A DNA stretch of 57,626 bases from Actinomycetes bacterium. Its GTDB lineage: Bacteria; Actinomycetota; Acidimicrobiia; IMCC26256; Chersky-534. Both the position numbers and the translations under genes were made by a program. The notes beneath the pieces are model-generated. The model was not told where the DNA came from, ran no database searches, and worked only from the letters and a program-made list of their open reading frames with translations. Below are positions 5,668 through 51,368 of this stretch, piece after piece. The stretch is from contig JAODBH010000078.1 of assembly GCA_025463865.1 (NCBI GenBank), positions 1-57,626 of the forward strand, read 5' to 3'. Within the stretch, counting starts at the first letter, position 1, and every line of letters begins with the position of its first letter.

Positions 5668-6327
5668 ATGCCCATCGACCTCGACTGCGCAGACCACCTG
5701 CTGACGAGCACCCGGGCGGTGCGCAAGCGGCTCGACCTCGACCGGCCGGTCCCCGACGACGTCATCCTCGAATGCCTCCGGATCGGGATCCAGGCCCCGA
5801 CGGCCTCGAACTCCCAAGGTTGGCGCTTCGTCGTCGTCACCGACCCCGGGGAGCGGGCTGCGCTGGCCGATATCTACCGCAAGGCCGCAGACCCGTATCT
5901 CGGTATGCAGGCCGGCGCCCTCGGCGACATCGAGGGCGGTACGGAGTCGGAACAGGGCCGGGTGCTCAGCAGTGCGCAGTTCCTGAGCGCGCGTCTTCAG
6001 GACGTGCCCGTGCACGTGATCCCGTGCGTGTTCGGGGACCCGCCGATCGGCAACTTCGCCGGTGCGAGCCTCTACGGCTCGATCTTCCCCGCGGTCTGGA
6101 GCTTCCAGCTCGCGTTGCGCGCGCGTGGCCTGGGTTCGGCGTTGACCACGTTGCACCTCGCGCACGAGCAGGAAGCCGCCGCGCTCCTCGGGATCCCGGA
6201 CGGCGTGCTGCAGGTGGGGTTGATCCCGGTCGCCTACTTCACCGGCGACGACTTCAAGCCCGCGGCCCGGCGGCCCATCGAGGAGATCACCTACTGGAAC
6301 CAGTGGAAGAACCCACCGCCCACCTGA
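5668..6327 (+). CDS. Nitroreductase family protein
   Basis: TRAVRKRL, QAPTASNSQGWRFVVV and LALRARGLGS FMN-binding motifs; GGAGG SD before ATG 5668. Confidence 0.9.
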   Translation: MPIDLDCADHLLTSTRAVRKRLDLDRPVPDDVILECLRIGIQAPTASNSQGWRFVVVTDPGERAALADIYRKAADPYLGMQAGALGDIEGGTESEQGRVLSSAQFLSARLQDVPVHVIPCVFGDPPIGNFAGASLYGSIFPAVWSFQLALRARGLGSALTTLHLAHEQEAAALLGIPDGVLQVGLIPVAYFTGDDFKPAARRPIEEITYWNQWKNPPPT

Positions 6328-6336
6328 CGGCCGCGG

Positions 6337-7119
6337 TCACGAACCCTGCATCGAGGAGCCGAGGAGCACGGCGGGCCAGGACGGCTCGCCGGGAGCGAGG
6401 GACTCGGAGCAGAGCGAGCGGTAGCGGCACCGCGCGCACAGCTCGGGTTCGGCGTGCCCGGTGAACGCGTCGTCGGCGCGCATCGCGGTGACGACCGCGG
6501 CGAGCTCGACGCCGATCGCGTCGATGTCGTCGTCGTCGGGGACGAACGGCTCGGGATCCTCGTCGACCTCCGTCGCGAGGTACTCCCAGCGCAGGCGGAG
6601 CTGGAGGCCCTTGCGGTCCGCGAACCGCGCGAGCACCCAGGCCTGCAGCCGGGCCTTCGGATCGTCGGCAACCCGGTCGATCGCGCGGAAGCCGGTCTTG
6701 TAGTCACGCGCGTCGAGCACGTCGCCGACGATCCAGAGCGCGTCGATGCGCGCGCTCGCCATGAACATGACGGGCGGCTTCCGGTAGAAGCGCGTGAGGT
6801 CGACCTCGTGGTGCCCGCTCGTCGGGTCGTGCGGGCAGCGGCGGGCGTGGCGCTCGAGGATCCCACGGGTCTCGGAGTCGTCCTCGAGGCCGTAGGCGGT
6901 GAGGAGATCGTCGACGTGGGCCGCATCGTGGCACGAGCCCTGCGCGTGGAGCTGGTGCAACAGGTTGTGCACGAACAGGCCCCGGTCGGGTGACGCGCCG
7001 GGGTCGCTCTCGGGGAGGCCGAGCACGCGTCCGAGCAGCGTCTCGCGCGGGCATCGCAGCCATTGTTCGAGCGCGGTCGGGCTCAGTCCGATGATGTCGG
7101 GCCACCACTTGTCGCTCAC
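6337..7119 (-). CDS. PD-(D/E)XK RecB/AddB/Cas4-like nuclease with 4-Cys Fe-S staple (260 aa)
   Basis: LSPTAL...RCP, GLFVH, HEV, ARID, RDYKTG and C-terminal CARCRYRSLC. The GTG start overlaps the upstream gene's stop (GTGA). Confidence 0.88.
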   Translation of the reverse strand: MSDKWWPDIIGLSPTALEQWLRCPRETLLGRVLGLPESDPGASPDRGLFVHNLLHQLHAQGSCHDAAHVDDLLTAYGLEDDSETRGILERHARRCPHDPTSGHHEVDLTRFYRKPPVMFMASARIDALWIVGDVLDARDYKTGFRAIDRVADDPKARLQAWVLARFADRKGLQLRLRWEYLATEVDEDPEPFVPDDDDIDAIGVELAAVVTAMRADDAFTGHAEPELCARCRYRSLCSESLAPGEPSWPAVLLGSSMQGS

Positions 7120-7850
7120 TTGTGGGCCTTGCAGCCGGGGACGTAGGCGCACCGGGCGCACTCGTGACCTTGGCGGACGCGGGTCTCGTCGGCGGCCAGC
7201 TTCACGGCTGCGACCCCGGCTTCCAGCCAGGCGTCGACGTCGGAGTCGTAGGGGTCGACCGTGATCTCGTCGTAGGTGGCGTCGACGAGGTCGGCGATGC
7301 ACACGCGCACCTCCGGCCCATCGCGATCCTCGTGGAGGGCCGCGCGGATGCGGGCGACGAGGAACCGCACCTCGACGGTCTCGGCGAGATCGGGACCGAG
7401 CGGGCGCTGGTGGACGCGGAGGAGCCGGACCTCGAGGGCGCCGTGCTCGTCGTCCAGGATGAGCGGTGGCGGCCCGACCAGGCGGACGCCGAGCTCGGGG
7501 ACGTCGACGGACCACTCGATCGGATCGCGCGCGACAGCCGGGCGATCGGCGAACAAGGCGCAATACGCGCGCGTCGTCACCGTGTACAGCATCTGCTGCT
7601 CGGGGAGGAGGTCGGTAGGGGGGTGGAACCAGGTCGGGTCGGCGGACCGGAGCTCGGTGTGCGCGAGCCGGATGTCGGCGTTGATGCGGTCGGAGAGTCG
7701 CCAGCGGACGTTGTCTCCCCACGTGGCGCGCTTCCGGTTGCCGAGCTCGAGCGCGAGCCGGCGCCCGCACTGCTGCGCGGGATCGCGCAGGCTCGCGGCG
7801 GTGATCTTGGGCAGGAGCTCTTCCTCAGACTCTTCCAAGTCGCTCCGCAA
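7116..7850 (-). CDS. Degenerate PD-(D/E)XK-like protein with 4-Cys motif (probable inactive paralog of the neighbour)
   Basis: ITAASL...QCGRR at the N-terminus and CARCAYVPGC at the C-terminus mirror the neighbour. The RID/DYK positions appear to read GPPP/EVRLLR. Confidence 0.65.
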   Translation of the reverse strand: MRSDLEESEEELLPKITAASLRDPAQQCGRRLALELGNRKRATWGDNVRWRLSDRINADIRLAHTELRSADPTWFHPPTDLLPEQQMLYTVTTRAYCALFADRPAVARDPIEWSVDVPELGVRLVGPPPLILDDEHGALEVRLLRVHQRPLGPDLAETVEVRFLVARIRAALHEDRDGPEVRVCIADLVDATYDEITVDPYDSDVDAWLEAGVAAVKLAADETRVRQGHECARCAYVPGCKAHK

Positions 7851-7862
7851 CTTCCGTGAGGG

Positions 7863-8978
7863 TCAAGTCCCCGAGGTCGAGGTCGCCGATCCAGCGGTCA
7901 GCGCGTCGATCGCGGCGACGATCTGGGCGTCGGCGGTGTCGTCGCCGAACGGCGACGGGATCGACTCGAGCCGGGCGTGCTCCGCGGCCGGATCGTCGAG
8001 CACCCGCGCCGCCGCGGCGAGCAGCTCGGGCCCGGGCTGCAGCAGCTGCGCGAAGGTGCCGATCGCTTCCGGGCGCTCGGTGGAGCGGCGCACCACCAGC
8101 AGCGGCCGCTTCAGCACGCTGACCTCCTCCTGGACACCCCCGGAGTCGGAGACCAGCAACGCGGCCTCGGCGGCCAGGCCGAGGAAGTCGCGGTACCCGA
8201 GCGGAGCGACGACCCGGAGCTTCTCGAGCTCGGCGCCGAGCCCGTAGGCCTCCGCCGCGGCCTGGGTGCGGGGGTGGATCGGGAAGACCACCGGGAGCTC
8301 CAGCGCGGCGAGGTCGTGGAGCACGGCCGCGAGCTGGTCGGGATCGTCGGTGTTCTCCGGGCGGTGGATGGTCGACAGCACGAACGACTCCCGGGACACC
8401 GCGTGGCGCCGGAGCAGCTCGATGCGGGACTCCGGGTCGGGGAGGAGCCGGGCGACGGCCCCGACGACCGGGTTGCCGGTGACGGCGATCCGGGACTCCG
8501 GGATGCCCTCGGCGAGGAGCCGGGTGCGGTTCTGCGGGGTGGCGGCGCAGGCGAGGTCGGCGAGATGGTCGATGACGACCCGGTTGTGCTCTTCGGGCAT
8601 TCTGCGGTCGTCGCTGCGCAGGCCCGCCTCGACGTGGACCAGCGGCACCCCCCGCGCATTCGCGGCCAACGCACCCGAGAGCGCCGCGTTGGTGTCGCCC
8701 TGGACCACCACGGCGACCGGGCGATGGTCGGCGAAGACCCCGTCGAGGGCGATCAGGGCGCTGCCGATCTGGATGGCCCGCCCGGTGCCGCCGACGGCCA
8801 GCTGCACGGCCGGCTGCGGGAGCTGCAGCTCGTCCTGGAAGTCTCCGGCCATCTCGGGGCTGTAGTGCTGCCCCGTGTGGACGAGTAAAGCGCGGGCACC
8901 GAGGTGTCGAACCAGACCTGCGAGCTTGATCAGCTCCGGTCGGGTTCCGAGCACCACTGCCACTGTCCGTGGTGTCAC
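7863..8978 (-). CDS. wecB: UDP-N-acetylglucosamine 2-epimerase (non-hydrolysing)
   Basis: VLGTRPELIK, HTGQHY, QGDT, HVEAGLRS, PEEHNR, HRPEN, SDSGGVQEE, TERPE. Start is GTG 8978 or 8993. Confidence 0.93.
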   Translation of the reverse strand: MTPRTVAVVLGTRPELIKLAGLVRHLGARALLVHTGQHYSPEMAGDFQDELQLPQPAVQLAVGGTGRAIQIGSALIALDGVFADHRPVAVVVQGDTNAALSGALAANARGVPLVHVEAGLRSDDRRMPEEHNRVVIDHLADLACAATPQNRTRLLAEGIPESRIAVTGNPVVGAVARLLPDPESRIELLRRHAVSRESFVLSTIHRPENTDDPDQLAAVLHDLAALELPVVFPIHPRTQAAAEAYGLGAELEKLRVVAPLGYRDFLGLAAEAALLVSDSGGVQEEVSVLKRPLLVVRRSTERPEAIGTFAQLLQPGPELLAAAARVLDDPAAEHARLESIPSPFGDDTADAQIVAAIDALTAGSATSTSGT

Positions 8979-9114
8979 AGCGGTCGACTCCACAGCGGAC
9001 AGCGCACCTCGGAAGCTCGGCAACCCAGATCCTTTAACATAACTCCCGGTGGCATCGGCGGGGCGCAATCGCCACGCAATGTGACTGGGTTCGGACCCAA
9101 CCCATCGGAGGAAC

Positions 9115-10356
9115 GTGGACACCAAGGGACCAGCGTCGGCGTCGGCAATGGATCTGCCGTCGGACCGGGACGCATCGGGGCGCAGCTTCGGACCCGAAGA
9201 GCTCGCGCGCGTCGCCGCGGTGCTCGCGTCGGGTTCGCTCACCGCGACCGCGGGCGCGCAGACGCCGGAGCTCGAAGCCGACTTCGCTGCGCTGCTCGGT
9301 GTCCGGCACGTCGTCGCGTGCTCGTCGGGCACCGCCGCGGTGCACGCGGCGATCGCGGCCGTCGATCCCGACCCCGGTGACGAGATCATCACCACGTCGA
9401 TCACCGACATGGGTGCGATCGCGCCGATCCTCTACCAGGGTGCGATCCCGGTGTTCGCCGACGTCGAGCCGACGACCGGCAACGTCACCGCGGCCACGGT
9501 CGAGGCCGCGCTCTCCGACCGGACCAAAGCGATCATCGTCACGCACCTCTTCGGCCTCCCCGCCGAGGTCGACGCCATCACCGCACTGGCCGACGCGCGA
9601 GGCATCGCCGTCATCGAGGACTGCGCGCAGGCGTACCTCGCCGAACGCGGCGGCCGAAAGGTCGGAACCTTCGGCGCGGTCAACGCGTTCAGCCTCCAGC
9701 AGGGCAAGCACATCACGACCGGCGAGGGCGGCCTGGTCGCCGGCGACGACGACCACTTCGCGCGACGCGCCCGGCTCTTCGTCAACAAGGGCTGGCCCTA
9801 CGGCGAGAGCGGCCCCGACCACGAGTTCCTGGCCATCAACTCGCGCATCAGCGAGCTCCAGGCCGCGGTGGCGAACGCCCAGCTCGAGAAGCTGGCCGCC
9901 GGGGTGGCCCAGCGGATCGCGATGGCCGACCGACTGACCGAGCAGCTCGCCGACGTGCCGGGCATCGAGACCCCGCCGGTTCCTGCGGGCGACCGGCACG
10001 TGTACTGGAAGTACTGCCTCCGCGTCGATCCCGAGGTCATTCCGGGCGGGCCGCCCGCGATCGCCGACGAGCTGAAGCTCGGGGGCATCGCCTCGGCGCC
10101 CCGCTACATCCAGAAGCCGGCCTTCCGCTGCGCGGTCATCCGGGACCAGGTCACGTTCGGATCGAGTCACTGGCCGTTCGACCTCGCCCGGCCCGAAGCG
10201 CTCGACTACGACGAGTCCCGCTTCCCCGGCACGTTCGACATGCTCGACCGCGTGCTGGTGCTGCCGTTCAACGAACGGTACGAGGAGCAGCACGTGGACC
10301 ACCTCGCCAAGGCCATCCGCGCTTCGGTCGAGTCGGTTGCGGGCGGTCGGCCGTGA
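9115..10356 (+). CDS. DegT/DnrJ/EryC1/StrS PLP-dependent sugar aminotransferase
   Basis: SSGTAA, IEDCAQA and FSLQQGKHITTGEGG with the PLP lysine; GGAGG SD. Confidence 0.93.
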   Translation: MDTKGPASASAMDLPSDRDASGRSFGPEELARVAAVLASGSLTATAGAQTPELEADFAALLGVRHVVACSSGTAAVHAAIAAVDPDPGDEIITTSITDMGAIAPILYQGAIPVFADVEPTTGNVTAATVEAALSDRTKAIIVTHLFGLPAEVDAITALADARGIAVIEDCAQAYLAERGGRKVGTFGAVNAFSLQQGKHITTGEGGLVAGDDDHFARRARLFVNKGWPYGESGPDHEFLAINSRISELQAAVANAQLEKLAAGVAQRIAMADRLTEQLADVPGIETPPVPAGDRHVYWKYCLRVDPEVIPGGPPAIADELKLGGIASAPRYIQKPAFRCAVIRDQVTFGSSHWPFDLARPEALDYDESRFPGTFDMLDRVLVLPFNERYEEQHVDHLAKAIRASVESVAGGRP

Positions 10357-11378
10357 CCGCCCCGCTGCGGTACGCCGTGATCGGCGCGGGAGGCATCGCG
10401 CAGTCGTACGCGCAGGTGTTCGCGCTCACCGCCGACGCCAAGGCCGTCGTGGTCGTCGACGAGGTTCGCGAGCGCGGCGACGCGTTCGCGGAGCGCCTCG
10501 GGTGCCGGTCGCTGCTCTCCTACACCGACGTCGACGTGTCCACCATCGACGCGGTGCTCGTCTGCACACCGCCGATCACCCACTTCGAGATCTGCTCGCA
10601 CTTCATCGCGGCCGGGATCCCGGTCCTCTGCGAGAAGCCGTTGGCGATCGACACCTCGAGCGCCGAGGCGCTCGTCTCCGCGGCGGAGACCGCCGGCGTC
10701 ACGTTCACGATGGCGGCCAAGTTCCGCTACTGCGCCGACGTCATCCGGGCCAAGAGCATCGTGGCGTCGGGCATCCTCGGCGAGATCATGCTGTTCGAGA
10801 ACGTGTTCGCGTCGCGCGTCTCGATGGGTACCCGCTGGAACGCCGATCCCGCGATCAGCGGTGGCGGGGTCATCATCGACAACGGCACCCACTCGGTCGA
10901 CATCGTCCGCTACTTCCTCGGGCCGGTCGCCGACGTGATGGCCGTGGAAGGCAAGCGGGTGCAGGGCCTCCCGGTCGAGGACACCGCCCAGATGTACATC
11001 CGCACCGTCGACGACGTCATGGCCACGGTCGACCTGTCGTGGAGCATCGACAAGGAGGTCGACAGCTTCATCAGCATCTACGGCTCGCAGGGCACCGTGC
11101 GGGTGGGCTGGAAGGAGTCGAAGTACCGCCAGGTGTCGAGTCCCGACTGGGTGGTCTTCGGCACCGGCTACGACAAGCTCCAGGCGATGGGCGACCAGCT
11201 CGCCAACTTCACCGCCGCGGTGCGAGGCGACGAGAAGCTGCTCATCTCCGGCGAGGACGCCATCGCGTCGGTCAGCGTGATCGAGCGCGCGTACTGCTCG
11301 CTCGCCCGGACCGACTGGGTGGCGGTCACGGGTGACGGCTCGGCGCTCCCGCAGGACTCCGGTGAACTTGTCGGCTGA
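10353..11378 (+). CDS. Gfo/Idh/MocA NAD-dependent sugar oxidoreductase
   Basis: VIGAGGIA, LCEKP, GGGVIIDNGTH; GTGA overlap with the aminotransferase. Confidence 0.92.
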   Translation: MTAPLRYAVIGAGGIAQSYAQVFALTADAKAVVVVDEVRERGDAFAERLGCRSLLSYTDVDVSTIDAVLVCTPPITHFEICSHFIAAGIPVLCEKPLAIDTSSAEALVSAAETAGVTFTMAAKFRYCADVIRAKSIVASGILGEIMLFENVFASRVSMGTRWNADPAISGGGVIIDNGTHSVDIVRYFLGPVADVMAVEGKRVQGLPVEDTAQMYIRTVDDVMATVDLSWSIDKEVDSFISIYGSQGTVRVGWKESKYRQVSSPDWVVFGTGYDKLQAMGDQLANFTAAVRGDEKLLISGEDAIASVSVIERAYCSLARTDWVAVTGDGSALPQDSGELVG

Positions 11379-12132
11379 CACGGTCGCTCGCGACCCGTCG
11401 GGCACGGTCGCTCGCGACCCATCGGGCGCGGTGTCCCGCGACGCGCGGGTTCACCCGACGGCTGACGTGGAGTCGGGGGTCCAGATCGGCGCGGGAACCG
11501 CGATCTGGGACCACGTGCACGTGCGCGCCCCGGCGCGCATCGGCGCTGAGTGCATCGTCGGCGGCAAGACCTACATCGCGGGCGAGGTCGAGATCGGCGA
11601 CCGGGTGAAGCTCAACGCGTTCGTCTACGTCTGCTCGGGCGTGACCATCGAGCGCGGCGTCATGGCCGGCGCCGGCACCATCTTCACCAACGACCGCTTC
11701 CCACGCGCGACCACTCCCGACCTGTCGGAGCTCCGTTCCTCCGACGTCGACGAGCACACGCTCCCGACGCTGGTCCGCGAGGGCGCGTCGATCGGAGCCG
11801 GGGCGGTCATCGGCTGCGGCATCGAGATCGGCCGCTTCGCCATGGTGGGCATGGGCTCGGTCGTCAGCCGAACCGTCCCCGACTTCCACCTCGTCGTCGG
11901 TAGCCCGGCCCGCACCATCGGCTGCGTCTGCCGTTGTGGCGAGCCGTTCGTGCGGTGCGCGCCCGGCGAGATCCCGCGCGCCCGCGCGGCCCGTTGCCCG
12001 GTGTGCGACCGCGTCTATGACGTCGACGCGACCGGCATGGTCACCGAGGTCTTCGAGATCTCCGACAACGAGACCCCCCGCACCGAGACCTCCGACACCG
12101 ACGGGACCACGGCCAGGCCCGGTCCGGCATGA
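11362..12132 (+). CDS. Hexapeptide-repeat N-acyltransferase (WbpD/WlbB-like) with C-terminal Cys-rich zinc ribbon
   Basis: VHPTADV, IGAGTAIW, FTNDRFPR, VVGSPAR, CVCRC...CPVC. Start uncertain (11332/11362/11431). Confidence 0.88.
   Translation: MNLSADTVARDPSGTVARDPSGAVSRDARVHPTADVESGVQIGAGTAIWDHVHVRAPARIGAECIVGGKTYIAGEVEIGDRVKLNAFVYVCSGVTIERGVMAGAGTIFTNDRFPRATTPDLSELRSSDVDEHTLPTLVREGASIGAGAVIGCGIEIGRFAMVGMGSVVSRTVPDFHLVVGSPARTIGCVCRCGEPFVRCAPGEIPRARAARCPVCDRVYDVDATGMVTEVFEISDNETPRTETSDTDGTTARPGPA
11379..11426 (+). repeat. 24-bp tandem duplication at the oxidoreductase/acyltransferase junction
   Basis: CACGGTCGCTCGCGACCC(G/A)TCGGG twice, beginning immediately after the TGA at 11376-11378; encodes TVARDPSG twice. 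Confidence 0.9.
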
Positions 12133-14516
12133 CCGCCGACCGGCAACCGCGCCGGGTCGGCATCGTCGGCGGCGGCATGCTCGGGCTGACGCTCGCGCTC
12201 CGGCTCGCGCAGCGGGGCGACGACGTCACGGTGTTCGAAGGCGCCGAGCGTCTCGGCGGCCTCGCCAGCGCGTGGTCGCTCGACGTCGACGGCGAGGACC
12301 CGGTCGTCTGGGACCGCCACTACCACGTGACGTTGCTCTCCGACCTCGCCGTGCGCGGCGTGCTCGGCGATCTCGGCCTCGAACGCGACATGCGGTGGGT
12401 CCAGACCAAGACCGGGTTCTCCGCCGACGGGCGCCTCTCGTCGGTCTCCGACTCGATCGACTACCTCCGCCTGCCGTCCCTCAGCCCCGTTGCGAAGGCA
12501 CGCCTCGCGACGACGATCCTCTACGGATCCCGCGTGCACGACTGGGAGAAGCTCGAGCAGATCCCGGTCTCCGACTGGCTCACGCGGTGGTCGGGCCGGG
12601 CGACCTACGAGCGGTTCTGGCTGCCGCTGCTGCGGGCGAAGCTGGGGGAGAGCTACCGCGACGCGTCCGCCGCGTTCATCTGGGCCACCATCCAGCGCCT
12701 GTACGCCGCCCGTCGCTCCGGCATGAAGAAGGAGCTCTTCGGCTACGTGCCCGGCGGCTACGCGCGCATCCTCGAGCGCTTCGGCGTCGTCCTCGCCGAG
12801 CTCGGCGTCGACGTCCGGCTCGGAGCGTCGGTGGCGTCGGTCACGCGCGGCCCTGACGCCGACGCGGTGACGGTCACCGCCGGGAACGGCGGCACCGACG
12901 AGTTCGACGACGTCGTGCTCACCACCACCACGTCGACGGTGAGCCGTCTCGTACCGCAGCTCACCGCGGCCGAGCACGACCGCCTGGATGCGGTCCGCTA
13001 TCAGGGCATCGTGTGCGCGTCGGTCGTGCTCCGCCGGCCGTTGAGCCCCTACTACCTCACCTACCTGCTCGACCCCGCGCCCTTCACCGCCGTGGTCGAG
13101 ATGTCCGCCTTCGTCGACCCCAGCCAGCTCGGTGGCCACTCGCTCGTCTACCTCCCGAAGTACGTGGCGCCGAACGACGCGCGGTTCGACGCGAGCGACG
13201 ACGAGATCCGCGCGTCGTTCCTCCCCGCGCTCATGGAGCTGCATCCGCAGCTCACCGAAGACGATGTCCTCGCGTTCCGCGTCTCGCGGGTGCGCCAGGT
13301 CTTCGCGCTCCCCACCATCGGGTTCTCGCGCACGGTCCCGCCGCGCGAGACCAGCCTCCCGGGCGTCCACGTCGTGACGTCGGCCCAGATCGTCAACGGC
13401 ACGCTCAACGTCAACGACACCGTGCAGCTGGCCGAGCAGGCCGCGGTGTGGCTCGGCGGTCCCGCTCCGACGAGACGTGGGCCCGAGCCGCGGCTCGGTG
13501 CGCCGGCAACGGTCGCCACGGCCCGACCCGGAAGCGCGGTCGTCGCGACCGGCAAGCCGACCGCGAGCCTCTCGCTCGACCTCGACAACCTGTGGTCGTA
13601 CCAGAAGACCCACGGCGACCCGGGCTGGGAGAGCTATCCGTCCTATCTCGACCTCGTGATCCCGCGCGTGCTCGAGTTCCTCCGCCGGCGCGACCAGCGG
13701 ATCACCTTCTTCGTCGTCGGCCAGGACGCGGAGCTGGCGAAGAACAAGGACGCGCTCGCGCTGATCGGCGAGGCCGGGCACGAGATCGGCAACCACTCGT
13801 TCCGCCACGAGCCCTGGCTGCACCGCTACACCGAGGCCGAGCTCGACGAGGAGCTCGCCAAGACCGAGGACGCACTCGAGAACATCTCGGGTCAGCGGAC
13901 CACCGCGTTCCGGGGCCCCGGCTACAGCCTCAGCGAGTCGACGCTCCGGGTCCTGTCCCGCCGGGGCTACCTCGTCGACGCCTCGACCCTGCCCACCTAC
14001 ATCGGTCCGCTCGCCCGGGCCTTCTACTTCCGCCAGGCCGACCTCACCGAGGAGCAGCGGACCGAGCGCGAGGCCCTGTTCGGCACCTGGCGGGACGGCC
14101 GCCGGCCGGTCAAGCCCTACCGCTGGGCCATCGACGGCACCTCGTTGCTGGAGCTGCCCGTCACCACGTTCCCGGGCCTCAAGGTGCCCATGCACGTCAG
14201 CTACCTGCTGTTCCTCGCCGGCCGCTCCCCGGCGGCGGCCCGGGCGTACTGGCGGACGGCGCTCGCGGCCTGCAAGCTCACGGGCACCGAGCCGTCCCTG
14301 CTCCTGCACCCGCTCGACTTCCTCGGCGGCGACGACCTCGAGGAACTGGCATTCTTCCCGGGCATGGAGCTCTCGGCCGAGGTGAAGATGGGGCACGTCG
14401 GCACCTTTCTCGACGCGTTCGAGGCCCGGTTCCGGGTAGGGACCATGGGGGAGCACGCCGCCGCGCTCAACGCCCGCACCGACCTCGAGCTCGTCCAACC
14501 GAGGTTCGACCGATGA
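12129..14516 (+). CDS. Fused FAD-dependent oxidoreductase + polysaccharide deacetylase (CE4-like)
   Basis: N-terminal VGIVGGGMLG/LGGLA FAD motifs. After a Pro/Ala-rich linker: SLDLDN, GNHSFRH, FRGPGY and LLHPLD deacetylase motifs. Confidence 0.85.
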   Translation: MTADRQPRRVGIVGGGMLGLTLALRLAQRGDDVTVFEGAERLGGLASAWSLDVDGEDPVVWDRHYHVTLLSDLAVRGVLGDLGLERDMRWVQTKTGFSADGRLSSVSDSIDYLRLPSLSPVAKARLATTILYGSRVHDWEKLEQIPVSDWLTRWSGRATYERFWLPLLRAKLGESYRDASAAFIWATIQRLYAARRSGMKKELFGYVPGGYARILERFGVVLAELGVDVRLGASVASVTRGPDADAVTVTAGNGGTDEFDDVVLTTTTSTVSRLVPQLTAAEHDRLDAVRYQGIVCASVVLRRPLSPYYLTYLLDPAPFTAVVEMSAFVDPSQLGGHSLVYLPKYVAPNDARFDASDDEIRASFLPALMELHPQLTEDDVLAFRVSRVRQVFALPTIGFSRTVPPRETSLPGVHVVTSAQIVNGTLNVNDTVQLAEQAAVWLGGPAPTRRGPEPRLGAPATVATARPGSAVVATGKPTASLSLDLDNLWSYQKTHGDPGWESYPSYLDLVIPRVLEFLRRRDQRITFFVVGQDAELAKNKDALALIGEAGHEIGNHSFRHEPWLHRYTEAELDEELAKTEDALENISGQRTTAFRGPGYSLSESTLRVLSRRGYLVDASTLPTYIGPLARAFYFRQADLTEEQRTEREALFGTWRDGRRPVKPYRWAIDGTSLLELPVTTFPGLKVPMHVSYLLFLAGRSPAAARAYWRTALAACKLTGTEPSLLLHPLDFLGGDDLEELAFFPGMELSAEVKMGHVGTFLDAFEARFRVGTMGEHAAALNARTDLELVQPRFDR

Positions 14517-15607
14517 AGCTGGAACCCGACGACGTGGAGATCGAGGAGCTCGACGCACCCGGTGCCTCGGCCGAGCCCAACCTGCGTCACTCCGCGTCGG
14601 TGATCGTGCCCGCGTACAACGAGTCGGCGATCCTGGTCGACAACCTGTCCACGCTCTATGAATACATGGTCAGCCTCGACGACTTCGACTGGGAGATCGT
14701 GGTCGTCGACGACGGCAGCAAGGACGGAACCGGCGACCTCGCCGACGTCTTCGCCGCGTCGCACCCGCGGGTGCGCGTCCTGCGTCACCGGACGAACTTC
14801 CAGCTCGGGCAGGCGCTGCGCTTCGCGTTCGCCAGCTGCCGCTCCGATTACCTCGTCGTCATCGACGCCGACCTCAGCTACTCGCCCGACCACATCGGGC
14901 GGCTGCTGCACGCCATGGAGGACACCCACGCGCGCGTCGTGGTGGCGTCCCCCTACATGAAGGGCGGGGAGACCACCGCGGTCCCGCCCTTCCGCAAGGC
15001 CATGAGCCGCTGGGCCAACCGGATCCTCGGGCTCGCGGCCAAGGGCGACCTCCACACCCTCACGGGCATGGTGCGCGCCTACGACCGGCGCTTCCTCCGC
15101 ACCTTGAACCTCAAGGCGATGGACAACGAGATCAACACCGAGATCATCTACAAGGCGCAGCTCCTGCGGGGCCGGATCGTCGAGATCCCCGCCCACCTCG
15201 ACTGGACCGCGCAGGTCACCGAGCAGACCGAACGCTCGTCGAAGCTCCGCGTGAGCCGCAGCACCCTGTCGTCGGTGTTCGTGGCCTTCATCTTCCGGCC
15301 GTTCATGTTCTTCATCTTCCCGGGGCTCGTCCTCCTCGCGGCGTCGGCCTACATGCTGGTGTGGATCGTCATCCGGATGGTGCAGGACTACAACCTGCTA
15401 CCGGGGAAGCACGGGATCTCGGGCGCGTTCGCGGTCGCGTACGAACGCGCGCCCTACACGTTCATCGTCGGTGGGCTGAGCCTCATCGTCGCGGTGCAGC
15501 TGCTCTCGCTCGGGATCGTCGCGTTGCAGGCCAAGCGCTACTTCGAGGAGCTCTTCCATCTCGGGTCGTCCATCCTGAAACGCGTCGACCTCGAAGAAGA
15601 CGCATGA
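14513..15607 (+). CDS. GT2 glycosyltransferase (polyprenol-phosphate sugar synthase type, C-terminal TM helices)
   Basis: VIVPAYNE, VVDDGSKDGT, IDADLSY and two C-terminal hydrophobic segments; ATGA overlap with the upstream gene. Confidence 0.92.
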   Translation: MKLEPDDVEIEELDAPGASAEPNLRHSASVIVPAYNESAILVDNLSTLYEYMVSLDDFDWEIVVVDDGSKDGTGDLADVFAASHPRVRVLRHRTNFQLGQALRFAFASCRSDYLVVIDADLSYSPDHIGRLLHAMEDTHARVVVASPYMKGGETTAVPPFRKAMSRWANRILGLAAKGDLHTLTGMVRAYDRRFLRTLNLKAMDNEINTEIIYKAQLLRGRIVEIPAHLDWTAQVTEQTERSSKLRVSRSTLSSVFVAFIFRPFMFFIFPGLVLLAASAYMLVWIVIRMVQDYNLLPGKHGISGAFAVAYERAPYTFIVGGLSLIVAVQLLSLGIVALQAKRYFEELFHLGSSILKRVDLEEDA

Positions 15608-15647
15608 ATCGCGGTTACGCCCGACGCGCCTTGGGTACGTACGGCTG

Positions 15648-17165
15648 ATGGGCGTCGTCGAGGGAGCGCGGGTCGGTTCCCTCGTCACGGGTCACGTGCC
15701 TGAGGAGCCCGACACCCAGATCTACCCGCGCGTCCGTGAGTACGTCGCGCCGGCGGTGCTGGCGGTCGTCATGCTCGCCCTGGGGCTGTTCCGGTTGGGA
15801 TCGAAGCCCCTCTGGCAGGACGAGGGCTTCACCTGGTCGAGCGCGACCCTCAGCGGAGGGAAGCTCGTCCACCACCTGGTCCACACCGAGGCCACCGGTG
15901 GCCTCTACCTGGTCTTCCAGCACTTCTGGGTCAAGGTCGGCAGCGACATCTGGTGGCTCCGCTTGCCGTCGGTGCTGTTCGCGACGGCCGCGGTTCCCGT
16001 CCTCTGGGCCCTGACGCGTCGGCTGTTCGACGCCCGCACCGCGACGATCGCGGCGGCGCTCCTGGTGCTGAACGCGACCTTCCTCGATCACGTGCAGGAG
16101 GCCCGCACCTATCCCCTGGTGGTCCTGCTCGCGTGCACGTCGATGTACTGGTTCGTCCGGGAGATGGAGTCGCCGACGCGCGGCGCGCGGGGCTGGTGGG
16201 TGCTGACCACGATCCTCCTCGTGTTCGCGCACGTGGTGGCCGGACTGGTGATCGTCGCGCAGGTCGTGTCGCTGCTCGTCGCCCGCCCTGATCGCCGCCG
16301 CACCCGGCACGTCGCCCTGGGCGTGGGGATGATCGCGGTGGTGGTCCTGCCCTTCCTGGTGCTCGCCAAGTCGCAGCCACTCGAGGGGCCGGTCAACAAC
16401 CCGACGGTCCGGTTCTTCTACAACACCCTGCGGGTCCTGGCCGGGGGCGGCAACGTGCTCCTCCTGGTGGAAGCGGTGGCCGTCGGCGGCGCGCTGTGGC
16501 TGTTCGTCCGCACCTACCGTGCCCACCCCCGCACCGACGCCGCGTGGCGCCTCGCGCTCCCGGCACTGTGGTTCGGCCTCTCCAGTTTGCTGTTCTTCCT
16601 CTACGGCCAACTGGCGACGGGCTTCCAGCAGCGGTACCTGCTGGCGTTCGTGCCCGGCCTCTTCATCCTCGTCGCCCGGGGCATCACGTCGATCCCCAGC
16701 CGCGCGATCCAGGCGGTCGCCGTGGTCGTGGTGCTCGCGCTCGCGGCGCCCGGCGTGTGGCGCTGGTACGACCAGCCTCGCGAGGGCTTCGACCAGATCG
16801 CATCGGTCCTGGTCCACGACCGGCGACCCGGCGACGTGATCGTGTTCAAGGTCGACCTGAGCCGCATCCCCGTCGCCTACTACCTGCGCGACCAACCGGG
16901 AACCCGGCGGGACATCACCCCGGTCTGGCCCGGCGGCCCGGCGTGGATGTCCGGCTTCCGGACCGGCGACTACCGCTTCTCCGCGGTACCGCCAGCGGTG
17001 ATGGCCCGGGTCGCGGCGCGCAACGACCGCATCTGGGTGGTCGACGTCGGGGCCCTCGGGTCCCGGACCCGCAAGGCCATCCAGGTCCTCCGCCGCACGC
17101 ACCGGCGGGTCAAGGACGTGGAGGTCGGAGGCGCACCCAGCCTGCAACTCTTCGTCCGGAAGTAG
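15648..17165 (+). CDS. GT-C fold glycosyltransferase (GT39/ArnT-like), paralog 1
   Basis: LWQDE motif after the first TM, LRLPSVLF, QEARTY and RY motifs, many TM helices and a soluble C-terminal domain. Confidence 0.85.
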   Translation: MGVVEGARVGSLVTGHVPEEPDTQIYPRVREYVAPAVLAVVMLALGLFRLGSKPLWQDEGFTWSSATLSGGKLVHHLVHTEATGGLYLVFQHFWVKVGSDIWWLRLPSVLFATAAVPVLWALTRRLFDARTATIAAALLVLNATFLDHVQEARTYPLVVLLACTSMYWFVREMESPTRGARGWWVLTTILLVFAHVVAGLVIVAQVVSLLVARPDRRRTRHVALGVGMIAVVVLPFLVLAKSQPLEGPVNNPTVRFFYNTLRVLAGGGNVLLLVEAVAVGGALWLFVRTYRAHPRTDAAWRLALPALWFGLSSLLFFLYGQLATGFQQRYLLAFVPGLFILVARGITSIPSRAIQAVAVVVVLALAAPGVWRWYDQPREGFDQIASVLVHDRRPGDVIVFKVDLSRIPVAYYLRDQPGTRRDITPVWPGGPAWMSGFRTGDYRFSAVPPAVMARVAARNDRIWVVDVGALGSRTRKAIQVLRRTHRRVKDVEVGGAPSLQLFVRK

Positions 17166-50112: not shown

Positions 50113-51368
50113 CGGACCGGCCCCTCCACGCCCGCGGTGGGTCTGACAGCGGCGCCGGGTCTGACAGCGGCGCCGGGTCGGGCCACGGCCTCGAGGAGCC
50201 GGGCCGCCTTCAGCTCTGTCTCCTCCCACTCCCGCGCGGGGTGCGAGTCGGCGACGATGCCCGAGCCCACGCCCAGCGCGGTCCGCCCGCCGGCAATGGT
50301 GAAGGTGCGGATCGCCACCGACAGGTCGCCGGTGCCGCGGCGGGTGTCCATCCATCCGAGCGCGCCGCAGTAGTAGCCGCGACGCACCGGCTCGAAGTCG
50401 TCGATGACCTGGAGCGCGCGCGGCTTGGGCGCGCCGGTGACCGAGGCGGGTGGGAGCGTGGCCCGCAGCACGTCGGCGAGGCCGATGCCGGGAGCGAACG
50501 CGCCGTCGACGGTGCTGACGAGGTGGACGAGGCCCGGGTGCTCCTCGGGCTCGCACAGGTGCGCGACGTCGATCGAGCCGGGCGCGCAGACACGCGACAG
50601 GTCGCTGCGGCTGAGATCGACGATCATCGTGTTCTCGGCCCGCTCCTTGGGATTCGCGACGAGCGCGCCCGGGTCGACGCCGGTCCCCTTGATCGGGCGG
50701 CTCACGACGGTGCCGTCGCGCCAGCGGAGGAAGCACTCGGGCGACGCCGACACCACCGACACCCCGCCGATGCGGACGAGCGCGGCGTGGGGCGAAGGAC
50801 TGGTCTCCAACAGCGCGCGGAACAGGGAGACGTCGTCGGCAGGCTGGTCCCACAGGATGCGACGCGTGAGGTTCACCTGGTACACGTCGCCCGCCGCGAT
50901 CAATCCGTGCAGCGCGCGGACCCTGCTCTCGAACCCGTCCCGGTCGAGGCTCGACGCGCCGGCTCCGAGACCGCCGCGGTGTGCAGCTGCACTCGCCGCG
51001 GGCCCGGGTCGCCGCAACCTCGCCGCCCGTATCGCCGCGGCCGAGCGCGCGTCGTTCGCGGAGCCGTCGGGCGCGAAGACCGCGCGGCGCTCGAAGCGGG
51101 CGAGCAGCACGTCGGGCACGTCGAAGTCGGGAGTGGGGCGCCCGCCCGCGGCCTCGAGGTCGCGACCGAGGTCGTAGCTGAGCGCGCCCGCCCACCAGCC
51201 GGCGCCCAGGTCGTCGAGGCGGCCGAACGCGAGCGGCCCGGAGCTGCGGATGACCGCGCTCGGTTCCCACGCCAGGATGGTCCGCGTCCCGGCCCGGACC
51301 ACGACCAGGTCGACGTCGGGCGGGAGGCCGGCGGCCAGCTCGGCTGCAGCCTCGAGGCCTGCGTCCAT
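50109..51368 (-). CDS. pabB: Chorismate-binding enzyme (aminodeoxychorismate synthase component I-like)
   Basis: YQVNL, SPECF, RPIKGT, KERAENTMIVDL, SVTGAPK, VAIRT, EWEET. TACGGT lies 6 nt before ATG 51368. Confidence 0.78.
   Translation of the reverse strand: MDAGLEAAAELAAGLPPDVDLVVVRAGTRTILAWEPSAVIRSSGPLAFGRLDDLGAGWWAGALSYDLGRDLEAAGGRPTPDFDVPDVLLARFERRAVFAPDGSANDARSAAAIRAARLRRPGPAASAAAHRGGLGAGASSLDRDGFESRVRALHGLIAAGDVYQVNLTRRILWDQPADDVSLFRALLETSPSPHAALVRIGGVSVVSASPECFLRWRDGTVVSRPIKGTGVDPGALVANPKERAENTMIVDLSRSDLSRVCAPGSIDVAHLCEPEEHPGLVHLVSTVDGAFAPGIGLADVLRATLPPASVTGAPKPRALQVIDDFEPVRRGYYCGALGWMDTRRGTGDLSVAIRTFTIAGGRTALGVGSGIVADSHPAREWEETELKAARLLEAVARPGAAVRPGAAVRPTAGVEGPVR
50139..50179. repeat. 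18-bp tandem duplication in the pabB 3' end
   Basis: GGGTCTGACAGCGGCGCC twice plus GGGTC; encodes RPGAAV twice. Confidence 0.9.

Follow-up and report, generated by a model that had tools for sequence, protein, structure and literature searches.

A candidate heterodimer of live and dead Cas4/AdnA-type nuclease domains encoded by a conserved gene pair of soil Acidimicrobiia

Iron-sulfur (Fe-S) nucleases of the Cas4, AddB, and AdnA type are known in three forms: they assemble into homo-oligomers, they work with Cas1 or Argonaute, or they occur as domains attached to a helicase motor. What, then, is to be made of two small proteins of this type that are encoded side by side with neither partner nor motor in sight? 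The question is raised by a 57,626-nucleotide contig of an actinobacterium of the class Acidimicrobiia (JAODBH010000078.1, assembly GCA_025463865.1; the whole stretch is referred to as the window), in which two overlapping open reading frames (ORFs) on the minus strand encode the proteins designated here P0001 (upstream) and P0002 (downstream). The original prediction for this locus described a coupled pair of Cas4/AddB-like proteins, one apparently active and one dead, and proposed that they form a heterodimer, perhaps serving DNA processing, defense, or nuclease inhibition. Our current hypothesis is that the pair is an obligate live/dead nuclease heterodimer for the repair or processing of single-stranded DNA (ssDNA) ends or forks of the chromosome, a reading that we regard as on balance probable when taken as a whole. 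Its two components are not equally secure, since the heterodimer anatomy is very probable and the role in chromosomal repair or processing is possible rather than probable.

The catalytic motifs of the pair reside in P0002. This protein matches the Pfam family PF12705 (PDDEXK_1) over residues 12-237 with 60.1 bits (cut-off 22, E 4.1e-16) and contains the motifs G47-x3-H51, E105, R124-I-D126, and D139-Y-K141-T-G, together with an N-terminal cysteine in the context LRC23PRE and a C-terminal C228-A-R-C231-x5-C237. Domains cut from the best 149 representatives of a library-wide search gave 79 P0001-like and 57 P0002-like sequences, from which deeper profiles were built. D126 and K141 are kept in all 57 P0002-like sequences and D139 in 56, and Q159 is invariant in 28 of 28 sequences; the remaining counts are collected in Table 1. 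With its catalytic His, Glu, Asp, DxK, and Gln all kept, P0002 is by sequence an active-type RecB/Cas4 nuclease. An AlphaFold2 model of P0002 based on the family alignment (predicted local distance difference test, pLDDT, 85.3) was compared with known structures by Foldseek, which placed the AdnA nuclease domain first (1.1e-07), followed by ACE1, AddB, RecE, Cas4, and RecB. No NCBIfam family was found for P0002, and PHROGs returned a generic exonuclease family only.

Several other residues of the P0002 family are conserved as well (H58 in 57, C63 in 53, H91 in 56, and C95-P96 in 55 of the 57 sequences). H58, C63, H91, and C95 sit in a helical insert that follows the GxxxH helix and precedes the first catalytic strand, are absent from P0001, and could form a second metal site of the Cys2His2 type.

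P0001 has the same cysteine framework, with an N-terminal cysteine in the context QQC28GRR and a C-terminal C231-A-R-C234-x5-C240 whose spacing is identical to that of P0002. These cysteines, noted in the original prediction, were read in both translations and are invariant, or nearly so, in the two families, which are conserved across the order; the pattern goes beyond coincidence. Both proteins fit the four-cysteine iron-staple pattern of an N-terminal Cys plus a C-terminal C-x2-C-x5-C and are accordingly candidates for binding a cluster. At the places that match the catalytic motifs, the translations confirm that P0002 keeps the RecB-family motifs and that P0001 reads RLVGPPP and EVRLLR, as had been predicted. 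P0001 gave no Pfam or NCBIfam match at E ≤ 1, and a sequence search of the PDB returned nothing significant for P0001, for P0002, or for the profile of either. When the two proteins were compared directly by BLASTP, only the C-terminal Cys region aligned (E 0.008). The hhalign value was 17% with the first small alignments and 88.9% (E 2.4e-6, 219 colinear columns) with the deeper profiles, and P0001 is, as judged from these profiles, a distant paralogue of P0002. The profile alignment pairs C28 of P0001 with C23 of P0002, N57 with H51, P129 with D126, L143 with D139, R145 with K141, and L164 with Q159, and E105 of P0002 faces a gap. The stretch L-E140-V-R142 of P0001 aligns with L-D136-A-R138 of P0002 rather than with the catalytic DxK. 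In the set of 79 P0001-like sequences, conservation reaches 90% at C28, E84, Y96, E140, R142, R167, G228, C231, C234, and C240 only; positions 143 and 145 are variable and position 129 is Gly in 36. P0001 is thus predicted to be without any catalytic residue of an active RecB/Cas4-type nuclease, and the assignment of P0002 as the active and P0001 as the dead member is supported by residue conservation and by hhalign.

The proposal of a dead nuclease would fail if P0001 did not have a nuclease fold, and the model of P0001 (AlphaFold2 with the family alignment, pLDDT 83.4) argues that it does. Foldseek returned 16 matches at E ≤ 0.001, the best of which is the AdnA chain 9np6_A (4.7e-07), followed by ACE1, Dna2, MGME1, and Cas4; the top 15 ranks listed consist of AdnA, ACE1, Dna2, and MGME1. 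VIA-align, an aligner independent of Foldseek, was run against 48,161 representative chains and gave Z 12.4 to residues 789-1039 of AdnA (213 residues aligned, root-mean-square deviation 4.7), Z 10.7 to ACE1, and Z 7.8 to AddB, and the rows after ACE1 are also PD-(D/E)XK nucleases. Both aligners suggest that P0001 adopts a PD-(D/E)XK fold of the Cas4/AdnA-like type.

To place the pair in a wider context, both profiles were searched against 301 genomes sampled across Acidimicrobiia. The P0001 profile matched in 63 genomes, which make up 63 of the 76 genomes of the window's order and 0 of the 225 elsewhere. Strong matches to the P0002 profile (E below 1e-40) were found in the same 63 genomes. 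One more P0002 match, at 1.5e-33, lies in a genome of another order (G006), where the deeper profile recognized a P0001-like ORF (E 1.3e-14) directly upstream of the P0002-like ORF. The P0002 matches elsewhere were weak and mostly in frames of ∼900 to 1500 amino acids, the size class of AdnA and AddB. Of the 63 genomes that have a P0001 relative, 62 have the P0002 relative directly downstream on the same strand; in the exception (G020), the two matches are on separate contigs, the second at a contig start. No full-length P0001 or P0002 was found without the other in the 301 genomes. The closest profile matches of the relatives are separated by -2 to +80 nucleotides or share one frame, with one outlier of 474 nucleotides that involves a fragmentary copy. 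Both matches lie in one open frame in 22 of the 62 genomes, or about a third. Likewise, 7 of 20 loci that were fetched consist of one continuous ORF of ∼500 amino acids with both domains (all 7 are among the 22), and both domains are on one chain in 28 of the best 149 representatives. Two of the genomes (G275 and G212) carry a flag as unpublished, and if they are set aside, there are 61 genomes, 60 adjacent pairs, and 21 fusions. The original prediction hinged on the two genes staying together in other genomes, and this is what the survey shows.

The family is small, with 549 representatives at E ≤ 0.001 among 1.84 billion. All carriers are uncultured and belong to a group of soil Acidimicrobiia, and the 80 loci listed from a collection of species genomes are all from Acidimicrobiia or from metagenome-assembled genomes of Actinomycetota. 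A few copies are irregular. In G108 (C26:58826-59062), there is only an 87-residue frame that matches the last third of P0002 and looks to be decaying. The fused ORF of G244 (C1:1327441-1328802, locus L034) has weak similarity in its N-terminal domain (E 1e-9) and a C-terminal domain that is matched in two stretches. In G248, several copies occur as fragments on short contigs (C7-C9), and counting one of these would raise the fusions to 23. The locus of G196, the only one checked for this purpose, is by eye too diverged for the ratio of nonsynonymous to synonymous substitution rates.

The natural fusions are the stronger evidence that the two proteins bind one another, and a model of the P0001-P0002 complex is consistent with them. 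The complex reached an ipSAE of 0.85 in 3 of 3 runs, and the best of three controls reached 0.01; contact agreement among the runs was at least 92% and the partner pLDDT at least 85. Of 157 solved complexes, 116 reached the mark used for ipSAE, as did 2 of 215 mismatched pairs; these counts apply here only roughly because our own alignments were used. The predicted interface consists of residues 43-52, 82-99, 188-192, and 227-243 of P0001 and of residues 3-13, 29-36, 107-124, and 233-238 and the C-terminal tail 246-256 of P0002. It includes E84 and Y96 of P0001, which are noncatalytic and universally conserved, and the W248-P249 tail of P0002, and it would therefore give a reason for their conservation. 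Taken together, the model supports that P0001 binds P0002 through a large predicted interface of family-specific conserved residues, and the heterodimer that had been proposed gains support from both the fusions and the complex score.

An interface of this kind could also belong to an inhibitor. P0001 might be a dedicated inhibitor or regulator of a toxic P0002, as in a toxin-antitoxin system, that lets go upon a signal such as oxidation of the cluster. In favor of such an arrangement, the dead paralogue is the upstream gene of a tightly coupled pair, and the predicted interface includes the cluster regions of both proteins (227-243 and 233-238). About a third of the relatives, however, are permanent covalent fusions, which suit a structural partner more than an antitoxin that has to be released. 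Moreover, the locus is not mobile, and the catalytic residues H51, E105, D126, D139, and K141 are not among the listed interface residues. We therefore consider an inhibitor role highly unlikely and regard P0001 as a probable structural partner of P0002.

The organization of the two genes in the window is summarized in Table 1. The two overlapping ORFs that share GTGA, as first described, are present in the sequence and in the translations, and the overlap suggests translational coupling. Their sizes of 244 and 260 amino acids hold as those of the longest ORFs; for P0001, the start is more likely TTG 7838, because its database cluster has 240 amino acids, its Atlas record begins at residue 5 of the 244-residue ORF, and a GGAG lies just 5′ of this codon. 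Only 24 nucleotides, on the same strand, separate TTG 7838 from the stop of the UDP-N-acetylglucosamine 2-epimerase gene (wecB). On the other side, the nitroreductase gene and P0002 converge, with 9 nucleotides between their stops (6325-6327 and 6337-6339, respectively). A scan of positions 6000-9600 gave no promoters or terminators, and no terminator-like hairpin was found between these two stops. The G+C content of the window is ∼71%.

Table 1. Features of the P0001/P0002 locus, in window coordinates
Feature	Position	Strand	Remarks
P0001 (upstream gene)	7116-7850	minus	longest ORF, 244 aa (amino acids) from TTG 7850; probable start TTG 7838, 240 aa
P0002 (downstream gene)	6337-7119	minus	ORF of 260 aa from GTG, stop codon included
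GTGA overlap	7116-7119	minus	TGA stop of P0001 shares bases with GTG start of P0002
P0001 Cys28, N-terminal ligand of putative four-Cys iron staple	7767-7769	minus	79/79 family sequences
P0001 C231-x2-C234-x5-C240, three putative C-terminal ligands	7131-7160	minus	78, 79, and 78 of 79 sequences
P0002 Cys23, putative N-terminal cluster ligand	7051-7053	minus	56/57 family sequences
P0002 C228-x2-C231-x5-C237, three putative C-terminal cluster ligands	6409-6438	minus	each in 57/57 sequences
P0002 H51	6967-6969	minus	57/57 sequences
P0002 E105	6805-6807	minus	56/57 sequences
P0002 catalytic core	6697-6744	minus	D126 at 6742-6744; D139-Y-K141 at 6697-6705
rho, DUF1385, prfA, prmC, ORF without assignment, nitroreductase		plus	
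P0002, P0001, UDP-GlcNAc (UDP-N-acetylglucosamine) 2-epimerase		minus	
Sugar-modification cluster	7863-17165	mainly plus after the epimerase	DegT, GFO/IDH/MocA, hexapeptide transferase, amine oxidase-deacetylase, GT2, PMT_2

Within the sugar-modification cluster, the ORF at 12129-14516 combines amine-oxidase and polysaccharide-deacetylase domains and overlaps a long frame (13013-15607) that holds GT2, such that the gene limits are uncertain. Outside the window, the surroundings of the pair were assessed with a Pfam scan of the 5′ side, which covered 133 of 140 candidate ORFs, and with tblastn searches of the 3′ side using the neighbors from the window. On the 3′ side, 19 of the 20 related loci have prfA and/or prmC in convergent orientation to the pair. 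On the 5′ side, one set of loci has divergent glyA, a wecA-type GT4 gene, and the atp operon, and another set has a polysaccharide cluster with DUF4012 and sugar-transferase genes. A Pfam match to rpiB was obtained on the 5′ side of one locus, and the start of an rpiB-like gene was recognized in further loci. In many relatives, rpiB-glyA-wecA-atp directly adjoin the pair at the place where the window has the sugar cluster.

No helicase, Cas, or Argonaute gene was found beside the pair among the scanned 5′-side ORFs of 19 loci or among the neighbors in the window. In its own genome, which is 93.5% complete, there was no match to Cas1 (PF01867) or Piwi (PF02171), and the five UvrD-helicase matches are on contigs C30, C57, C274, and C261, with none on the contig of the pair. 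Tandem Repeats Finder listed no repeat longer than 2.8 copies in the window and hence no CRISPR array. The description of the locus as having no helicase or CRISPR nearby is borne out by these results. The short tandem repeats that were listed are at 1518-1574 (22 nucleotides × 2.6, across the rho stop at 1535-1537), 11379-11442 (24 nucleotides × 2.7), and 50139-50189 (18 nucleotides × 2.8).

Two explanations that tie the pair to a helicase can be weighed against this context. First, the pair could be a remnant of a decayed addAB or adnAB locus that has lost its helicase parts, as the AdnA nuclease domain is the best structural match of both proteins. The same genome, however, has an intact adnA-like gene of 1072 amino acids with a C-terminal PDDEXK_1 domain (contig C274, L115:3-6061, minus strand), located directly upstream of a UvrD-type helicase gene of at least 948 amino acids that runs off the contig start. 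The motifs of the pair are strongly conserved across the order, and its fixed location, syntenic in 19 of 20 loci, is unrelated to adnAB. The profile of P0002 matches the C-terminus of the resident AdnA-like protein over its whole length (hhalign 94%), and that of P0001 aligns to its last Cys motif only; the partner P0002 is the only full-length sequence relative that could be detected for P0001. The remnant explanation is contradicted by the intact adnAB-like locus, the conservation, and the fixed site, and we rejected it as extremely unlikely. The original prediction had named such debris as what would undo it, and the pair does not have this character. A solo PDDEXK_1 protein of 290 amino acids (E 4.7e-33, with a weak DUF2800 match) is also encoded in this genome (G000, contig C146, L116:5066-5938, plus strand), flanked by luciferase-like monooxygenase and PAP2 genes; it too matches the P0002 profile over the whole length (96.8%) and the P0001 profile at the last Cys motif only.

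Second, the pair could be a detachable nuclease module that docks in trans on a separately encoded helicase, such as a UvrD/PcrA-like, RecQ-like, or AdnB-like motor, for end resection. The structures closest to both subunits are nuclease domains of the helicase-nucleases AdnAB and AddAB, the genome does encode the UvrD-type helicases listed above, and a motor-less Cas4-like channel is described as unable to unwind a duplex alone (PMC12094033). On the other hand, no helicase neighbor is conserved in the 19 loci, the resident adnA-like gene already has a nuclease domain, and none of 18 longer family members that were scanned is fused to a helicase or to any other informative domain. For these reasons, we think docking on a helicase improbable and favor an enzyme that acts as the pair itself.

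The fixed position of the pair also bears on whether it is an immune system. A chromosomally fixed anti-plasmid or anti-phage nuclease, that is, a two-subunit "solo-Cas4" immune effector, would be in keeping with solo-Cas4 proteins that are reported to interfere with plasmid DNA (PMC12094033). There are also weak, colinear matches to the PADLOC model PprPDDEXK (P0001, E 1.5e-4; P0002, E 1.1e-6; a fused relative, 8.6e-5), although 5 of 6 fused relatives have no match to this model. In 19 of 20 loci, however, the pair is found at the same syntenic site, flanked by housekeeping genes, and it is present in a single copy per genome and follows a vertical pattern across the order. Its annotated flanks consist of housekeeping and sugar-biosynthesis genes with no recognizable defense genes. 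No copies were found in the mobile elements searched: a fused member used as query had no match among phages (50,697 records) or plasmids (72,556), and the family profile had none in a viral contig collection. Vertical inheritance, single copy number, housekeeping neighbors, and absence from mobile elements make chromosomal repair or processing likelier than defense, and we consider an immune effector rather unlikely. Of the options in the original prediction, the heterodimer is upheld, and defense and nuclease inhibition have no contextual support.

With respect to the PADLOC model itself (PDLC02423, 449 positions), residues 156-242 of P0001 correspond to positions 105-187 and residues 15-106 of P0002 to positions 210-304, and the fused relative P0169 covers positions 83-314 colinearly. 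PprPDDEXK may be a distant tandem relative, by sequence, within a set of defense candidates. A literature search returned no paper with this name.

Based on these findings, we propose that P0001 and P0002 make up one enzyme, an obligate heterodimer of paralogous Cas4/AdnA-type PD-(D/E)XK domains, in which each domain would be stapled by its own four-Cys Fe-S cluster, by analogy with its relatives. P0002 would be the catalytic subunit, using H51, E105, D126, D139-x-K141, and Q159. P0001 would be the noncatalytic partner, in which the fold is retained together with the cluster ligands, some arginines, and the interface helix with E84 and Y96. AdnA and ACE1 are each described to feed ssDNA along a narrow channel that leads to a buried active site (PMC12094033), and P0002 may by analogy cut a single strand threaded to its buried D-DxK site. 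The Fe-S subdomain of AdnA is described to sit at the Y-junction and to keep the unwound strands apart (PMC8789073). P0001 may hold or orient DNA or separate strands, for example, by taking the second strand where an end is frayed or at a flap or fork. The enzyme would lack a motor of its own. The pair would be transcribed as a small separate operon, located at a fixed position of the core genome, and would be vertically inherited.

A number of points weigh against this proposal. We infer Fe-S binding, nuclease activity, substrate, and stoichiometry. The dead call for P0001 draws on a distant profile alignment and on predicted models, and 31 of 79 relatives retain Asp where D126 aligns. The score of the complex expresses the confidence of the model itself, and our own alignments are outside its calibration. 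The pair is dispensable, as 13 of the order's 76 genomes gave no match, among them all 7 of a small-genome genus (g7). A core-genome location is compatible with an immune function. P0001 and P0002 may be cotranscribed with the sugar-biosynthesis gene wecB, which offers nothing in favor of a repair role. Upstream of 62 loci, neither a LexA-box pattern (0.47 against 3.26 per kb) nor a RecA-NDp pattern (0.047 against 0.054 per kb) is enriched. Lastly, the 15 runs listed include no RNA run, and none of them contains as many as half of the words searched for.

The upstream regions have some regularities of their own. A TAnnnT hexamer (TAGCCT or TAGCGT) is located ∼7 nucleotides before a GTG start in many relatives (L055, L083-L087, L062, L072, and others), in a zone ∼10 to 35 nucleotides upstream of the start of the P0001-like domain, and a similar TACACT precedes the divergent rpiB-like gene. 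The hexamer looks like what we take to be an actinobacterial promoter for leaderless mRNA. The 7-mers enriched upstream were discarded as a regulatory signal, as they correspond to the start or promoter of the divergent rpiB-like gene and to the TAnnnT hexamers. Rfam returned no family at the gathering score in the window and nine related loci. RecJ was considered as an anticorrelated function and dropped, as 0 of the 301 genomes were without a match over the cut-off and there was no discrimination.

A more specific version of the proposal is that the pair is a motor-less, two-channel end-processing enzyme, equivalent to the free-living nuclease ends of an AddAB/AdnAB-type resection machine. 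In this version, which we deem unlikely, the dead Fe-S subunit would steer or shield one strand at a frayed end or fork and the live subunit would cleave its counterpart, and the two putative Fe-S clusters near the interface, together with the possible Cys2His2 site, could allow redox or metal regulation. If true, it would be a previously unrecognized DNA-repair activity of Acidimicrobiia. Regardless, a live/dead, free-standing, and repeatedly fused heterodimer would add a pseudoenzyme-partner architecture to the Cas4/AddB/AdnA-type nucleases, and the pair offers a compact two-protein target for finding out what an iron staple and a noncatalytic paralogue give to strand handling without a motor. 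It also represents a conserved candidate DNA-processing gene pair without assignment in widespread uncultured soil actinobacteria. Since the family is small, lineage restricted, and dispensable, its general importance is probably limited.

How does the pair compare with known systems? A literature search, which had subscription journals outside its scope, found no account of a live/dead pair or tandem of this sort. A phylogenomic study of Cas4 mentions type I-A adaptation modules with two different cas4-like genes, as well as one viral Cas4 derivative that has been inactivated (PMC5704561). Cas4 and solo-Cas4 proteins (SSO0001, 4ic1; Pcal_0546, 4r5q; Methanosarcina mazei Solo-Cas4) are likewise small Fe-S PD-(D/E)XK proteins with 1 + 3 cysteines and are often encoded away from CRISPR loci, but their structural matches to the pair are weaker. 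P0002 has no match to the Pfam Cas4 family at E ≤ 1 (besides PF12705, there is only a subthreshold zf-POGZ match), and the PADLOC Cas4 models reach E 0.006-0.04 only. We do not assign the pair to Cas4 because it has no family-model match and no association with Cas1. M. mazei Solo-Cas4 is reported at about 318 kDa and Pcal_0546 as a monomer; the characterized Cas4 proteins are homo-oligomers or monomers and none is a live/dead heterodimer, whereas the pair is predicted to be one.

The AddB nuclease domain of AddAB (3u44, 4cej) has the iron-staple fold and is among the structural matches of both proteins (P0002, Foldseek 1.2e-05; P0001, Z 7.8). In AddAB, both nuclease domains are active. AddB has ∼1150 amino acids with an inactivated helicase domain, whereas in the pair the degenerate module is the nuclease. 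The combination of a working module with an inactivated paralogue does have a parallel here, as AddAB is described to pair a working helicase module with an inactivated paralogous one (PMC3321194).

The AdnA nuclease domain of mycobacterial AdnAB (9np6, 6ppr, 7sjr) is the best structural match of both subunits and has the 1 + 3 Cys Fe-S staple that both proteins of the pair appear to have, although identity in the structural alignments is only ∼16 to 21%. A UvrD-like motor domain, present in AdnA, is missing from the pair, whose proteins are only 240 to 260 amino acids long. AdnAB tethers each nuclease to its own motor subunit, whereas the pair would consist of two nuclease-fold domains bound or fused to each other, one of them active. 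No Pfam or NCBIfam helicase family was found on P0001 or P0002, and because there is no motor domain, the pair is neither AddB nor AdnA.

The second-best structural match is ACE1, which has an Fe4S4 cluster and resembles the pair in being stand-alone, in its similar size (266-269 residues in the chains), in its fold, and in its D-DxK site. ACE1 is described as a motor-less ssDNA endonuclease that forms a heterodimer with a partner (PMC12094033). The partners differ, as that of ACE1 is a long-A prokaryotic Argonaute and that of P0002 is predicted to be a dead paralogue, in a genome with no Piwi match. Furthermore, ACE1 is a defense accessory, whereas the pair has a core-genome context. The pair is not ACE1 because no Argonaute was found. 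We regard it as a new architectural variant within a well-known nuclease family, present in one mostly uncultured actinobacterial order, which by analogy probably works like a solo Cas4- or ACE1-type nuclease and is structurally nearest to the nuclease domain of AdnA.

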